From NCBI RefSeq assembly GCF_964204865.1, contig NC_135253.1, forward strand, positions 7,750,001-7,814,000: a stretch of DNA of 64,000 bases, written 5' to 3'. Shown in pieces: positions 27,138 to 52,627 of the stretch; position 1 is the stretch's first letter, and every line of letters starts with the position of its first letter. Below the pieces are notes generated by a model. It was given only the letters and a program-made list of their open reading frames with translations. It was not told the origin of the DNA and ran no database searches. Source of the stretch: Styela clava (Eukaryota). Both the position numbers and the translations under genes were made by a program.

Positions 27138-27672
27138 TGGTTTGTATGGTGATGTATAATTACCATTCACATCCTCGTCCTATCAGAGCGGTTCTTGAAA
27201 CCGCGAATTGGTTGCAGATTCATCCACAATCAAAGTCTATGTTTAGATCCATAAGGTACAATAAAAGGGTTAACCATATCCAACCTGGACTTACAACCGT
27301 ACTGACGGCCGAGACTGGTTTTTATGGTAATGTATAATTACCATTCACATCCTCGTCCTATCAAGGCGATTCTTGAAACCGCGAATTGGTTGCAGATTCA
27401 TCTACAATCGAAGTCCATGTTTAGATCTATAAGGTACAATAAAAGGGTTAACCATATCTAAGCTGAACTTACAACTGTACTGCCGGCCGAGACTGGTTTA
27501 TATGATAATGTATAATTACCATTCACATCCTCGTCCTATCAAGGCGATTCTTGGAACCGCGAATTGGTTGCAGATTCATCCACAATCAAAGTCTATGTTT
27601 AGATCTATAAGATACAATAAAAGGGTTAACCATATCCAACATGGACTTACAACCGTACTGCCGGCCGAGACT
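27138..27672. repeat. Tandem array, 3 x 178 bp
   Basis: Unit containing ATGTATAATTACCATTCACATCCTCGTCCTATC...GGCCGAGACTG repeated with period 178. Confidence 0.92.
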
Positions 27673-27788
27673 GCCATATAATCTATACTACAGGCTTGGG
27701 TTTCCTCTCTTTCGGGGTGAAATAAAAAGTCTCGATGTTTTACAGCAACCATTAGGCTATGCATCTGAAAAAAAATAATTGGCTAACT

Positions 27789-27951
27789 CAGGGGTCGGCA
27801 ACCTACGGCCCTGCTGCTTAAAATATAACTTCTGATCTGTGCGAAAAAGTGTGATTCATCGGTCTTTAACTTCCTAAAAAACATGTGCGGCCGCCAATGA
27901 CTTGCAACCTTTAATTTTGGCCCGCGAGCGACAAAAGGTTGCCGACCCCCG
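27789..27951. mobile_element. Short hAT MITE
   Basis: TIRs CAGGGGTCGGCAACCT / AGGTTGCCGACCCCCG. Confidence 0.75.
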
Positions 27952-28630
27952 GGCCGCTAACTGATCCCACACCCAACATGGACTGGCAACCCATATGATT
28001 GAGCCGTCTTATAGGATTTGCTTTCCCCGGGAAAAATATGTAAATCCTATCCTATTACTTCCGCTATGGCACGAACATCCAATGGCTGGCTGACCTTGAA
28101 CTCCCGGTAGAGCGTGATCGTCGTCGTATATATACCTCGTCATAGTTTTACCGCAACGAAGCGACAGCTCGGTCTGTCGGTATTTTCCAAGTGAATCTAC
28201 GGGATAATTCCGGGAATTTTGCATGTATATTGCCAGCAACACTTATACATATACACTCATACTTATACTTTTCTTATACTTATAAAAACATGTGCGGCCG
28301 CCAATGACTTGCAACCTTTAATTTTGGCCCGCGAGCGACAAAAGGTTGCCGACCCCTGGGCCGCTAACTGATCCCACACCCAACATGAACTGGCAACCCA
28401 TATGATTGAGCCGTATTATAGGATTTGCTTTCGCCGGGAAAAATATGTAAATCCTATCCTATTACTTCCGCTATGGCACGAACATCCAATGGCTGGCTGA
28501 CGCGGAACTCCCGGTAGAGCGTGATCGTCATCGTATATATAACTCGTCATAGTTTTACCGCAACGAAAGGACAGCTCGGTCTGTCGGTATTTTCCAAGTG
28601 AATCTACGGGATAATTCCGGGAATTTTGCA
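27876..28630. repeat. Direct duplication, 2 x about 348 bp, period 407
   Basis: Both copies contain the hAT right end, a SINE tail and a GC-rich segment; they are separated by an ACTTAT-rich spacer. The ORF track shows the paralogous ORFs 28009-28242 and 28416-28649. Confidence 0.9.
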
Positions 28631-28851
28631 CTGCACAAAAGTAACACACACGACTTACTTAGTGGTTACAAAATATAGCGTAACACTACGGGACAGCAAG
28701 TATATCATGCATTTATTTTTAGTGTGTTGTGAGTTGTCGCGATGGTACAGCAGGAGCCCATATTATTTTCTGGTGCAGTAACTGATGGGACGCTCTATGT
28801 GCCACTAAAGTTACTCAATGCAATACTGTAGATCAGGGGTCGGCAACCTAA

Positions 28852-31783
28852 TAGGCCGCGAGCCGAGGCCCTGAAAAACGCCTAGAAAGTGAGTTTCGTA
28901 GCGCACATCAGGTAACTACCTGAAAATGATTTTAAAATGTTCCTAAAAAATTTAGTAACAAATATTGCCTTGTTCCCACTTCCAAAAGTTGCACGTTTTA
29001 CGGAAAAGACGCTTTTACTACAAGAAATATGTGCTACGATCTGTCCTATATTCTCTACATTTTCGGCAAGGAACAATGACTTCAGCATGACGTAACAATT
29101 GAATTAAACCAGCTGTTAGCGAGCGGATGAATATTAGTTATTACTGCTTGACCTTGCGCTGAGTCGGGCAGGCTTTCCATAGCCCTGTTTAGTTATTATT
29201 AGTTAAGTTATGCTAAGACGTTGTTGAAAAATGTATAAGTAAGTTATTAAACACTTGTAGATCCTTACCACGGATATGGGCCGTGAGACGAAGCCATGAA
29301 AACGCCCAGAAAATGAGTTTCGTAGCGCACATCTGGTAACTAAATAAATTCTTCAGTTTTGTGTGAAAACGAACATAATGAACGCATTACAGCTTGTTCC
29401 ACAATCCTAGTGCTGAATATAAGAGGTTCCCGGAAATTCAATAACCATAAGTTTACAACACATACATGAGAACTATGCAATTCGAGAGCCCTACAGCACA
29501 CTAACACAAATGTATTCCTGTGATGTTTTGCCTGACCAAAATCGGACTTCCTCGGTCAATCATAATTTATTACGTAGATTACGAAAAATATGGCATACAT
29601 GTAACCAACAACAAAAAATACTTTAATTGTGTGACAGGAATCGGGAGTGACCTCGAAAGCAGCGACACCAACAACGCTGATTCACATAAATAAATTTTAT
29701 GTAATAACCACAAGCAGTCTACAACATGAACAGCATAAAAAGCTACATCCATTTTATAGAAGCTATCAAACGTATTTATTTTTAAGCAATGAAGTCACAA
29801 ATTAACATCGTGAGCACGAAAACACAAATAAATCAGGTATTTCTCACTTAGAAATTTACCGCAAAAGTCAAGAAAATTAACATAGTGAACAGAAATATTA
29901 CAATTTACAATTAATCTTTTTTTAGTTTATGTGGTTATGTATTTGAACAAAGGCAATAATACTTCTAGAAACAGGACTACGACACTAACAAATGTCCGAA
30001 AAACAAAACAAATAAATGATACATATTAAATCAACAGTAATATCTAATTCACTTTCTTCTGAATTGTTTTCGAAATCCACTATCTCAAAAATCGACTTTT
30101 CCTCTAAAGTGTACTGTGATTTTTGCAGTCAATACAAAAACAAAAATCTGTGCAATTTAAGATGATTTTGGCACACTTTCATAAATTATTTTGACTATTT
30201 TTCTTACACTTGCAGTTTGCCAACTCAAGAACTGATTTGAGGGCCACATGCTTCTTCAGTGAATCATTGTTGGGTGGAGAGTATAATCCTTATGTTTGAC
30301 AGTGTTAAATAGACGTGCCCTGGTATCATTTACATTCTTCATATCCTCTTTAAATTCCTCAGCTTTATTTATTAATGCCTCGTTAACTTCAAAAGATCTT
30401 CATAGTCGAGGGAAAAAAATGAATTGAAAATCTCAATGAAGTCTCCAACATGAATTTGATGGGCAGTTCCAATTGCAGAAAAGTGCTAAAGTATTTCAAT
30501 ATGAATAGCCCATCTAAGCTGTTTGCAACTATTATGATTCCCATATACCTTTAAGCTTCAAGACTTCTTGTTTAATCCATTTTATAGCACTGATAGCAGC
30601 AGGGATCAGAGCCTGCGTTAGGTCGGATTGGTGGAACATTGCCGTTTTCTTTTGTAGTACAGTATCTAAAATGAGGAAGAAAATAATATTTGGAGCAGCA
30701 TGAGTTTAAAAATACCCCTAAATACTAACTAATACCTTGAATACATAATCATAATGCATTTTATCTGATGTACTAAATGAGCGTATATATGCTCATTGCA
30801 TGTACTACAGTCCAGCAGTGTTTGCATACCATTACCGGTACCGTACTACACTATATCTACACTAAATTTTGATATATCACAGTCTGAAATGTCCTATGAC
30901 AGTATGAGTATGAACTATAGACTATATTTTAAAACATCAACTGTTTGTCTACAACTTGATTTCTCACCTCTCAATCGTTTCCAATGCTACCTTTCTTTCC
31001 ACTCCGGCATAACTTATCATTGCTTCCCAGGTTCTTGTCGACTCTATGAATTTAGATTTAGACCAACCGACATTAGTAAAATTGATTTTCTTCTTTTTCA
31101 CACAACCGTGCATTACAGAAATAGATAGCCATTCATTTCTATTTCCAAATATGCTGTGGCCTGTATATAGTAGTATAAGTCTGCTGAATAGTCAAGAAGA
31201 GTCATTAAATTAATCATAAACATTTCATGCAAGCCAGAAAATATCGTTGTTTGAGACATATTATTCTAGGTCTAGCCTTCCTTGGAGTTACCGCACCGCA
31301 CCTATTTAACAACGTCTTATGAGCTAGTGCTCAACTAAAATTGCTATTTATGGTAAGGATATGCAAGTGTTTGATATCTTACCTATACTTTTCAACACCT
31401 CCTTAGAATAACTGAACTAATATTACCGGTGACTGAAAAAAACTATGGAAAGGCTACTCAACGTAAAAGCGAGCAGTTGTAGTACATCTGATATTCATCC
31501 GACCACTGGGGATCCACCTACAGCTGACTAACTTGACTGTTACGTCTTGCAGAAGTCTGCGTTCATTGGCCCATGATACCGGAAAAGCAGGGAAAATAGG
31601 ACAGATGGTAACACATATTTATTGTAGTAAAAGCGTCTTTTCTGTAAAACGTGCAACTTTTGGAAGTGGGAACAAGGCAATATTTGTTACTAAATTTCTA
31701 AAGAACATTTTAAAATCATTTTCAGGTAGTTACCTGATGTGCGCTACGAAACTGAAAGATAAATGGCCTCGGCTCGCGGCCTA
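28852..31783 (-). mobile_element. Academ (AcademX-type) DNA transposon, internally deleted and decayed
   Basis: Termini TAGGCCGCGAGCCGAGGCC...GGCCTCGGCTCGCGGCCTA; TAA duplicated at 28849-51 and 31784-86; inverted repeats about 28852-29270 and 31350-31783; minus-strand remnants VNDTRARLF, PPNNDSLKKHV and LELANCKCKK..KCAK..LNCTDFCFCIDCKN. Confidence 0.8.
30110..31150 (-). pseudogene. Decayed Academ protein C-terminus (XPG-like region and Cys-rich finger)
   Basis: Three exon-like blocks (about 31150-30968, 30666-30549, 30400-30110) with stops and frameshifts; Cys cluster at about 30125-30216. Confidence 0.65.
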
Positions 31784-32345
31784 TAAGGCCCGCGGCCAGA
31801 TCTTCTTGAAGGAAAACTCTATCCTAATTCGACAAACCATGCGAATAAATTCCCATCGATGTTTGGAAATACATGTTCATGCGAACAATTATTGGACACG
31901 TCAGTGGACATAACGATCGTTTTGTGTTGTTGTTGTTGTTCTTCATCATGTCATTCTTCTTCCTATCGATATTGAAAACCCGTTTTTATCTTTGATTACA
32001 CGACCAATTTCTTCGAAATTTCCAGTGCTTAAAGAATAAATGGTTCAGTTTGAGGCAGCTAAAAAGTCAGTCGCCATGAGTTTGGCCATAGCGGCCATGG
32101 TTTGGAAATACCTCCATGGTTTTGCGGCAGCTTCAGGCGCCACGAAATACTTAACTGTCCTTGGGATCTTGGGTTCTTTACCTGACTGTGTCGACTGTTT
32201 GAGAAATTCTGTAGACTAGGATGAGTTATGGTTGGGGTCTTGCAATACCACCTGGATGCAGATGGCCTCGATTTCCAGATTGTCACGACAGAGTGTGAGA
32301 TTTGTCTGTTTCAAGAGTTGTTAAATTGTGTTGAGTTCCCGAGTT

Positions 32346-48628: not shown

Positions 48629-50911
48629 GGTTGTGATGATTATCAAGCAATTCACATGGCATTGCTCAAGATGTGATACACGAAAGTGTACTATTCAGCT
48701 AATAATTCTGAAACCAATTTGAATAGTTTTTTATACATAAGAGGTTGATTACATTTGAAAATATTTCATATTGTTGAATTATTGTGGTATAATAACATCT
48801 CATCATAAAAATTTCACATCATGTTTCTTAAATCATCTCTCTTCATTGTAGATTCAAAATACAGGAAGTTGTGTCACTATACCTATGTTTCTGTATAAGT
48901 ATAATATACAGTATTATGTAGGAGGATTGAGTTGCGTCACAAAGCTGATATTTTTTCTTTAATAGCTCAAGGAAGTGTATCTTCCTACTTGTCATACACC
49001 ACGCCTCTCAATCAGTCTTTGTTCAATACAGGCCCTGTTTACTGAGCAATTATTCTATCATTTCTCTTAAGCAGAGTTAAATACCGAACAGTTTGATTAC
49101 CAATTACAATGGGAAAAATTACATTACCATTACATTTAATTGAACCGCAACTTTATCACTATTCAGACCTGACTGTCCGAATGACAATGGTCACAATATC
49201 ATTCGAAAAATTAAATTTGAAAATTACTTGTATTTGAACGATCAACCTTTAATATTTTGAGGCATTGTTAGCAACTAGATCGGCCAAAAATTGATTTCTT
49301 TGACGTCTGATAAATGTTTAGTCAAGTAAAGTTGTTTTTACAATTATACAATCATTAAATATACCTAATCACAAAACTAATTGTAAAAAGATTTATATTT
49401 GTGTGAAAAGAACAGTAGTGGAGAATGAAGCATATTTCTGGTAAGGTAATGATAACAATTTTCACATTTCAATATTTTCTTATTACAGTGAATTTAACTC
49501 GATCTTATAATACTTAATTTTTTAACAGTCCTCTCTTTATTATTTTAAACTGAGTTATGTTTGAACAAAAAGACTCTTTTTGTTAGTTGTTACACCTTTT
49601 TGGTTTAGGTTTGATTAATGACGTTTGGCAAACATAGAGTGATTCATAGCTTGAAGTTCACACCCCTTGATGTTTCAAAACTACTTATATAGCCTGGTTC
49701 ACAGTTCTCCTAATTCATTTCTCACTGTACCTTTAGGTTTTAGTATCCCAGAAACATACATATGTATCTGAATCTAATTGATCTTAGGAATATATTTGGA
49801 AAAAACTTTCTTAAAAGTAGGTCTGTGCAAAATTTTGTTGGTTCGATGACTTAATAAAGCTTAGAGTAAGATACGTTGAATTATGTTGGGATCGAAGGTG
49901 AAACATCTTTGGTTCAGATCCTATACCCATCGTATCACCCAGAGTGTAATAAATTAGGTACGGTAGGCAATGCCAAACTGTCAAACACTTTTGCCCTATC
50001 GAAGAAGTGGCCGATAGACTACTCAAGATGGTAGTATATAAATTGGTAAGTAAACAATGCCTACAAAATACAGGTATTGTTCATTTTTGGGCTACTCTGG
50101 AAAAATTTATGTCCATCATGATCTATAATTTTAAAATATTCTATTCTAAAATGTTCTATTCAGACTCTGGTAATTAGTTGAATAATATTCAATAATTTTT
50201 TCAAGAGGCTGTGTACTTTTGTGTTCAAGTTTAGGCCAATATTAATATTTCTTTTTGTGAGGATAATGTGTGTATTGAATTCTATGTCAAGAGCCATTGA
50301 ACACTCTTGTATTCCCAATGAACTTATCCAGTTAGCATACAAGATAGGAATGATTAATTTATGGTTTGATTTTGAAAATGAACAAGTAGCGTAGAATTAC
50401 TGATTTTGTAATTGAACGGCCTTCTAGTTATGTCATTGAACTTTTTTATTCGGAGTTTATTTATAATATTTTTGGCATTAATTGTGCATGCTGTTATTCA
50501 AGTAAAGTATGAATTTTGAGTTATAGGCAGGGATTACCAAAATGAATTGAATATTCAAATAATATCAAAATTCATACATACCGGTATGTTGGATTTAAGA
50601 TATTGATATAAGATAGGCAGGTTAAAGTCAGGCTTAGGTAATTACTAATAATTGTAGGAAAAAGAAAAACTTACTAATCTTTCTACATAATAAAATGGGT
50701 AATCTGTACATATTCACTGCTGAACATGAATCCCATTTTAAAAAAGGGCCGATATATCATATTGAAAATAGATTTTAGAATGTAGATTTTCCGTTTTGGC
50801 TAGTTTATATATAATATTAATATACGTGTGACACTTTTCAATTCTCAGATTGTCTATTTACAAGTCTCAATAATTATTTATCTTGAAAAGTGATCTCCAT
50901 TAACGAGCATC

Positions 50912-52627
50912 ATGCCAAAGACTATCAATGTCCGGGTTACTACGATGGATGCCGAGCTGGAGTTTGCCATCCAGCAAAGCACAACTGGCAAACAGCTTTT
51001 CGATCAGGTTGTCAAAACCATTGGCCTCAGAGAGATCTGGTTTTTTGGCTTGCAGTATGTTGATTCTAAGGGTTATACTACATGGCTGAAATTGAATAAA
51101 AAAGTTACAGCCCAAGATGTTCGCAAGGAAAATCCACTGCAGTTTAAATTCAGGTGCAAGTTTTTCCCTGAAGATGTTGCTGATGAGCTTATCCAAGAAA
51201 TTACTCAAAAGCTGTTTTTCTTGCAAGTGAAGGAAAGCATTTTGAATGATGAATATTACTGTCCTCCCGAGACATCAGTACTGTTAGCTTCTTTTGCAGT
51301 TCTTGCAAAATATGGTCCATATATGAAGGATAGACATGGACCAAAATATTTGTCTAAAGATCGACTTTTGCCGCAGAGAGTATATGAACAGCATAAACTT
51401 ACCAAGGATGAATGGGAAGAACGTATTCAAACCTGGCATGCGGAACATCGGGACATGGCTCGAGATGACGCTATGATTGAGTATCTGAAGATTGCTCAGG
51501 ATTTGGAAATGTATGGAGTAAATTATTTTGAAATTCAGAACAAAAAGAAAACCCATTTATTTCTGGGGGTAGATGCTCTTGGCCTGAATATATATGAGAA
51601 GCATGACAAACTCACTCCCAAAATTGGATTCCCCTGGAGTGAAATTAGAAACATATCATTCAATGACAAAAAGTTCGTCATTAAGCCAATCGATAAAAAA
51701 GCCCCGGATTTTGTGTTTTATGTTGAACGTTTACGCATCAACAAACGTATCCTTGCCCTCTGCATGGGAAATCATGAGTTGTACATGAGACGCAGAAAAC
51801 CAGACTCAATCGAAGTGCAGCAGATGAGAGCACAAGCTCGTGAAGCAAAACATCAAAAGAAACAGGAGAGAGAGCGCATGGAACGAGAACACGCTAATTA
51901 CATGGCAGCTCTTCAAGCACAGCAGGAAGCGCTTAATGAAACCGAAAGAATAAAAATGTTGCTGGAAAAAGAGAAGCTCAACAATAGAGAGTTACTGGAA
52001 CGTCAGGAAAAGCAAATGGATGAACTGAATGCTGTGAGAAGGGGAATAGAACAGGCAGAAAGAGAAAGAAAGGAGACTGAACTTGAACGTCAAAGGGTGA
52101 TGGAAGAGTATGAGCGAGCTAAACAACGCAATGCTGAGGAAAGCACTCGCAATATTGAAATGGAGGCAGATATTCAGAAATACCTTTCTGATTTGGAAGC
52201 TCTGAAACAAAAGGAGTTAGAAAAAGAGCAGGATGCTGAGAAATGGAGAAGAGAGGCTGAATTAATGCAGGAGCAAGTTGAAAAAACCAAAGAGGAACTT
52301 GACAGAGCAAAAGAAGAAGCTCAAAAACAGATGTTACCTCCACCACCTGTGGAAATAGAAGTGGAGTCAATGGAGCTGGGTGGTCCCGGCGAAAATGACC
52401 GGAGTGAAGAGGATAGATTGACTGCTCAAAGTAAGGATAAGGCTCTTCAAGAACAGCTGCTAGCTCTGAAATCTGAATTGGCAAATCTTAAAGACCAGAA
52501 TAAAAACACAGACATGGATATCCTCCATCAAGAAAATGTTAAAGCTGGACGAGATAAATACAAAACCCTCAAGCAGATCAGATGCGGAAATACAAAGCAA
52601 AGAATTGACGAATTTGAGGCGCTATGA
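50912..52627 (+). CDS. ERM family protein (ezrin/radixin/moesin-like), single coding exon
   Basis: 571-aa ORF: [20 protein letters not shown] start, FERM domain, coiled coil, PPPP stretch, [18 protein letters not shown]...[11 protein letters not shown] with the regulatory Thr. The C-terminus is ERM-type, not merlin-type. No single vertebrate paralog can be assigned. Confidence 0.98.

Follow-up and report, generated by a model that had tools for sequence, protein, structure and literature searches.

A young, internally deleted AcademX-type transposon family of Styela clava shares its tips with an intact partner but keeps an older interior

The element at 28852-31783 of the window (i.e., the whole 64,000-nucleotide stretch of Styela clava DNA that was analysed) is a member of a young, high-copy, non-autonomous family of the AcademX type that is internally deleted. 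Its tips are those of an intact autonomous relative in the same genome, and its interior is that of older copies of its own family. We think it very probable that the family is moved in trans by this partner lineage, and on balance probable that it acquired its present ends by sequence exchange, through either repair or conversion. Overall, a gutted family that has no transposase, is cut and pasted by the partner's enzyme, and captured its tips by repair or conversion is the reading that we consider likely.

The limits of the element are exact. It spans 2,932 bp, its perfect 19-bp termini (TAG…CTA) lie at 28852-28870 and 31765-31783, and a TAA duplication flanks both ends (Table 1), all as the first-pass annotation had described. 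When the element and one TAA are removed, the joined empty site occurs as an exact string at 2 other places in the genome (control, 0), and the boundaries therefore hold. Both places are ends of another repeat, which we take to be a hAT element. An empty site at the element's own locus in another individual was absent among 15 listed joints of 50, and the flank itself is a repeat. Upstream in the window, a 162-bp miniature element (27789-27950) has the same end as the repeat interrupted by the Academ copy, and 27138-28583 holds three tandem 178-bp repeats and a 407-bp tandem duplication.

The termini recur throughout the 377-Mb genome, where the left 31-mer has 173 exact occurrences and the right 25-mer has 204 (controls, 0), counts that include the few autonomous copies. 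Interior sequence was used to fetch 30 loci: both ends of a single copy were present in 21 of them, an end was missing from the retrieved stretch in 8, and the ends were wrongly paired in 1. All 21 whole copies carry a 3-bp target site duplication (TSD; flanks compared up to 8 bp); among further spans, it is present in 17 of 22 and absent from the other 5, which are tandem or rearranged copies. Target sites are mostly AT-rich (30 left flanks). Mean pairwise identity is 98.3% for the 21 copies, which are the best matches within a more diverse family. The original description as an Academ deletion derivative without a transposase core was correct, but its view of a lone relic was not, given that the family is young, numbers at least about 170 copies, and has an intact partner in the genome. 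Several rearranged copies were also observed. L131:1012-3985 lacks a TSD and ends on either side in a left-type tip; it probably arose by recombination between copies via the long inverted repeat. Others are two inverted copies whose flanks are exchanged (L150), head-to-tail dimers with a common terminal TA (L134 and L168), and tandem arrays (L080).

A less broken copy (L089), used as the query, led to P0001, a 1,604-residue protein listed as uncharacterized protein LOC120332986 and named from Styela clava, which has 208 representatives at E ≤ 0.001. A 75-residue exon query for the autonomous element retrieved mostly non-autonomous copies, and a query with the P0001 core found the partner. This intact element (L109:883-8138; 7,256 bp) has a CTT duplication and the same 19-bp terminal inverted repeat (TIR), which answers the earlier call for autonomous copies, and it encodes P0001 at 1604 of 1604 residues in four exons separated by three GT..AG introns. 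The P0001 core is 100% identical at three loci (over 346 residues) and 99% identical at four more, whereas the other 11 of at least 18 core matches reach 65% or less; no closer autonomous parent was present among these matches. The three partner copies are 99.6% alike, and of those with both ends, two of three have a 3-bp TSD and the third, a tandem or rearranged copy, has none. All three partner introns are skipped in contigs of runs X1 and X5, two in X6, and none in X9; that these runs are RNA is a guess, and the contigs represent transcripts of the family and not of the window locus. The partner is intact, has the tips of the family, and is likely active. A spliced contig from X6, which lacks 13 bases of L109 by deletion and skips another 1,871, represents a transcribed defective copy, and L110-L111 is a rearranged tandem of the autonomous element. 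A second Academ-type family is also present (L116:1815-8196 on G000:C5, near 11.97 Mb), with a core 49% identical to that of P0001, its own TAG...CTA termini, an AAT duplication, and an open frame of 1,185 codons; related copies are L117, L118, L119, and L126.

The structural models of P0001 indicate which parts of an autonomous element the window copy has lost. The model of residues 436-1129 (pLDDT, 86.9; 49 sequences) was matched best by the P-element transposase (Z = 10.7, rmsd = 5.7, 349 residues aligned), followed by ISCth4 (Z = 8.7); Foldseek alone returned no match to the transposase core at E ≤ 0.001. D510 and D680 occur in 49 of 49 rows and E927 in 48 of 49, and these three residues likely form the catalytic triad. 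This DDE-type core is present in the partner and deleted in the window copy. The P-element transposase is the nearest fold to the Academ core, ahead of IS256-type, hAT, and RAG/Transib folds, which provides a lead on superfamily kinship. The model of residues 1130-1604 (pLDDT, 89.8; 62 sequences) matches the XPG/FEN1 clan (EXO1, Z = 14.9; XRN1, 14.2; FEN1, 13.2; XPG, 12.1), in agreement with Foldseek, and the acidic residues of the XPG fold are kept in 59 to 62 of the 62 rows. Eight cysteines at 1545-1575, kept in 55 to 58 of 62 rows and broken in the window copy, match the CXC region of LIN54 when searched as a profile (E = 5.5e-4), with Pfam TCR below its cut-off; a PDB sequence search with the C-terminal part as a single sequence found only LIN54 (E = 0.022). 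A Pfam scan of 8 proteins gave nothing above the cut-off and, for P0001, no helicase family. Residues 1-215 matched only unnamed eukaryotic clusters in the Atlas, and the name Academ does not occur among the 120 homologues listed.

AcademX elements are characterized by TAG termini, a nuclease labelled XPG-like, and a Cys-rich C-terminal finger, and the lineage and the Academ superfamily reportedly go back to Kapitonov and Jurka in 2010 and Kojima in 2020. TAG termini were found here, as well as in the L116 family, and the partner has both a nuclease that follows the transposase and the Cys-rich finger at its C terminus. P elements make 8-bp TSDs, and the P superfamily does not fit because 7 to 8 bp would be expected and 3 bp were found. 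PMC10045372 assigns 3- or 4-bp duplications and a nuclease to AcademX and 9 or 10 bp and a helicase to AcademH; the family and the partner have the 3-bp TSD of the former. AcademH does not apply, given this TSD length, the nuclease fold of the partner, and a scan that returned no helicase family. The RNase H-like DDD/E core of Academ elements is found in the partner only, and according to PMC5751038, the Academ core has no Pfam match. Under the Repbase rule, as given in PMC4455052, a non-autonomous member shares TSD length and terminal positions 1 to 11 with its group; here, 19 of 19 terminal bases equal those of the partner and both make 3-bp TSDs. Classification and distribution are treated in PMC10294476, PMC10799480, and PMC9587614. 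The placement in AcademX is a probable one, drawn from TSD, termini, folds, and conserved residues. The same 3-bp TSD and a partner with a DDE-type core and a nuclease, not a helicase, are what our case shares with AcademX elements; in contrast, the window copy has no transposase, has a long secondary inverted repeat and a fossil inner end, and has tips that match a partner to which its interior is only 82% alike.

Within the window copy, about 270 of the 1604 codons are retained, in broken form, with matches to P0001 residues 1-53, 53-80, 1428-1481, and 1535-1581 at 56 to 72% identity (tblastn). In the alignment, a single deletion fuses intron 2 to about codon 1413, and the junction sequence is identical in the 12 copies that show it, which come from new and old subfamilies. 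The peptide strings quoted at the outset are all found on the minus strand, except that “MFH..AGSD..ISAIK” is not one peptide, since MFH and ISAIK share a frame and AGSD lies in another. AGSD was considered as the GCD motif of XPG and rejected: its frame aligns to P0001 residues 53-80, where the counterpart of AGSD is the AGYH of the N-terminal NVPPIPPNAGYHRCCYQRY, whereas the window copy has lost the region around residue 1401 that holds the GCD motif. The reported remnants of an XPG nuclease and a Cys finger are real as regards a non-catalytic XPG tail and a broken finger, but AGSD belongs to the N terminus and the catalytic acidic residues are all gone. Likewise, the C-terminal remnant is frameshifted as claimed (it also carries a stop and a further internal deletion), but the break at 30967-30666 is a genuine intron. 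From the ATG at 31113, the spliced frame of the window copy yields 79 residues. The mirrored open frames listed for the window both lie within the inverted repeat and show no match to the protein of the partner; one of them extends beyond the element into flanking sequence.

Table 1. Features of the window copy and its insertion site (window positions)
Feature	Position	Strand	Remarks
Interrupted repeat end, first half	28834..28851	+	Continues at 31787-31795; same end at window 27789
Left TSD, TAA	28849..28851	.	3-bp TSD in 21/21 whole copies
Outer left terminus, new type (19-bp TIR plus left-specific 21 bp)	28852..28891	+	Identical to autonomous partner
Secondary inverted copy of right subterminal region	28892..29270	+	Pairs with 31351-31753; absent from partner
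Fossil original left end, old-type terminus	29277..29400 (end approximate)	+	Direct repeat; old-type bases at terminal 8, 12, 38
C-terminal remnant, about residues 1413-1604	30030..30464	-	Non-catalytic XPG-fold tail; from tblastn with P0001, alignment, and fold range
Broken CXC-like Cys finger in C-terminal remnant	30244-30107	-	
Intron 2 stub and deletion junction (approximate)	30465..30548	-	About 4.8 kb of parent gene missing
Exon 2 of parent gene, about residues 54-98	30549..30665	-	Holds the AGSD string
Intron 1, GT..AG	30666..30967	-	Spliced out in family contigs of X1 and X5, both probably RNA
Exon 1, coding part, residues 1-53	30968..31132	-	First ATG, at 31132, out of frame in this copy
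Right end	31351..31783	-	Outer 20-38 bases like partner; positions 39-212 like older non-autonomous copies
Right TSD, TAA	31784..31786	.	

The imperfect inverted repeat of about 400 bp was confirmed on measurement, with arms of 419 and 433 nt and 345 of 401 aligned bases identical past a short unlike spacer. It is not a native TIR, as had been supposed: the autonomous partner has no long inverted repeat and only the 19-bp TIR and a short subterminal motif. The first 50 bases of the window copy are identical to the partner's left end (50/50), the right subterminal region recurs in inverted orientation at element positions 41-419, and a second, decayed left end starts at 29277, from where the sequence resembles the left end of the partner at about 87%. 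The long repeat is therefore secondary, and the original left end is fossilised inside. The two arms are identical at 142 of 150 positions between 51 and 200 (95%) and at 75 to 80% further in, a pattern that would fit an old duplication followed by homogenisation near the tips. Old copies with only the simple left end exist (L143 and L150), and in L146 both ends still begin with TAG. At L071:6623, the added module has been lost between the two direct repeats, and a new-type outer tip directly abuts the old inner left end.

The ends and the interior of the family tell discordant histories. Old copies and the fossil inner end have one terminal type, and the partner and the young copies have another, the two differing at five terminal sites (left 8, 12, and 38; right 12 and 20). 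Identity of the interior to the partner averages 82.5%. In a tree of the interior (1,216 columns and 35 rows, unrooted, with no outgroup), the young copies are placed within the old-tip ones (100/99), the oldest copies are those near which the partner branches, and the two new-terminus clades are not recovered as sisters; a single clade of the partner and the new-terminus copies is rejected (p-AU = 2e-63). Direct deletion of the present partner is contradicted by this rejection and by the interior divergence. The switch is visible along the right end of the window copy, where 48 of the first 50 bases are identical to the partner: the informative sites are like the partner at 3 of 3 up to position 20 and like older copies at 14 of 14 from 39 to 212, in a comparison of 33 ends whose old groups were partly picked by their patterns on positions 12 and 20. 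Mixed ends are rare. Among left ends with the old base at 38, 16 of 17 are wholly old, and one more end has the reverse mix, i.e., 2 of the 18 matches carrying an old base are mixed. On the right, an old base at 20 with a new base at 12 was seen in 0 of 20 ends, all 20 having the old base at 12, and there are three reverse mixes, all in one tandem cluster beside new-type twins.

These patterns may be arranged into a sequence of events. The single deletion from intron 2 to about codon 1413, which removed both the DDE core and the XPG active site, would have come first. An inverted copy of the right subterminal region would then have been added outside the old left end, which was kept as a fossil; the structure is plain and the event is our interpretation of it. 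Later, the outer 20 to 40 bases of both ends probably changed from the old type to that of the partner, while the interior stayed with the old lineage. The likeliest route for this change would be gap repair after the excision of an autonomous copy: with the autonomous tips retained or restored, the gap would have been filled using one of the numerous non-autonomous copies as template. Finally, the partner transposase would bind the TIR and subterminal motif at both ends and insert the element with a 3-base stagger. The XPG-fold domain might trim flaps or ends, a guess from its fold and from the link between TSD and enzyme proposed in PMC10045372.

Capture of the tips has to be weighed against other origins of the discordance. 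One keeps the same family and the same partner but has the tips converge by separate point mutations, with no exchange of DNA; these would be selected because the changing transposase of the partner prefers its own terminal sequence. TIR homogenisation would leave only about three independent substitutions, which strong selection could fix in parallel in a master copy without intermediates; further support comes from the matching sites, which all fall within the outer 40 bases expected to be bound, and from the existence of singleton mixed ends. However, each change must hit the partner's base, even at left 38 and right 20, which lie beyond the TIR. The ends also switch cleanly between positions 20 and 39, and no amplified intermediate was found among the ends compared. 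We regard parallel selection as unlikely. Exchange in the reverse direction, i.e., an autonomous lineage that took its present tips from the non-autonomous family, would fit the unrooted tree and the site pattern, which are both symmetric with respect to direction; on the other hand, about 7 partner loci stand against at least about 170 ends of the non-autonomous family, and reverse exchange would presumably need a rare element as the repair template as well as foreign tips that suited the recipient's own enzyme. We judge it very improbable. The identical tips and the colinear N- and C-terminal remnants might instead have suggested a lone dead relic, formed by recent deletion of the present autonomous element and bearing native 400-bp TIRs, but the interior is only 82.5% alike, the corresponding clade is rejected, the partner has no long inverted repeat, and the family is young and abundant. 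This possibility is refuted unless there is an unseen autonomous element close to the interior, and we consider it remote.

An additional proposal, which does not exclude capture of the tips, is that the family was kept partly because a spliced N-terminal peptide of 79 to 94 residues dampens the partner, much as the KP protein does in P elements. Contigs of two studies that are probably RNA lack intron 1 of the family (joint 30665-30968, in X1 and X5, not X9 or X10), and in 32 of 56 distinct copies, among them the window copy, the spliced frame extends as far as the CCY motif (35 of 59 parsed rows, with 3 loci fetched twice and 2 more unparsed). Against this, the newest and oldest consensus sequences differ at 5 of 49 synonymous and 12 of 185 non-synonymous sites in the peptide, small counts that compare with 7 of 60 and 13 of 258 in the dead C-terminal control and thus indicate no stronger constraint on the peptide. 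Moreover, 4 codons of this region are missing from the family, and in the youngest subfamily an ATG in another frame lies upstream. A repressor role of the peptide is unsupported, and we give the proposal a small probability. A combined reading, in which the passenger survived about 10% divergence by capturing 20 to 40 partner bases and also restrains the partner through the spliced micro-protein, likens the capture to the tail swapping of SINEs and seems to us similarly improbable.

End swapping as such is a known kind of event. In Drosophila melanogaster, P-element replacement by gap repair from an ectopic copy sets the interior of one element between the tips of another, an outcome analogous to that proposed here, and the KP repressor is a deleted copy that keeps a spliced N-terminal frame, as the passenger family does. 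The partner core folds nearest to the P transposase, but it differs from the P element in its 3-bp TSD and its added XPG-fold domain. Our literature search for P-element replacement found no paper, and for end capture, Galileo was the only close case found. According to PMC3573991, Galileo of Drosophila mojavensis shows TIR extension in non-autonomous copies and 7-bp TSDs, and it includes chimeras that combine the TIRs of one subfamily with another's interior, which are proposed to have given rise, through conversion, to a whole subfamily. The swapped TIRs of Galileo are hundreds of bases long, and no functional transposase was found there, whereas here only 20 to 40 bases switch and match an intact, spliced partner.

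The present case is well documented and provides a usable test system for AcademX. We know of no Academ element that was shown to transpose in an assay, and a literature search for such an assay found none, two founding papers aside. With the L109 partner and a substrate family whose tips differ at five bases, direct tests become possible of how ends are recognised, what the nuclease does, and where the 3-bp duplication comes from, and the series of subfamilies documents a way for a non-autonomous DNA transposon to follow the changes of its partner. Elsewhere in the window, the plus strand at 50894-52624 holds an uninterrupted, intronless open frame of 577 residues that is presumably ezrin/radixin/moesin-like and is possibly a retrogene.
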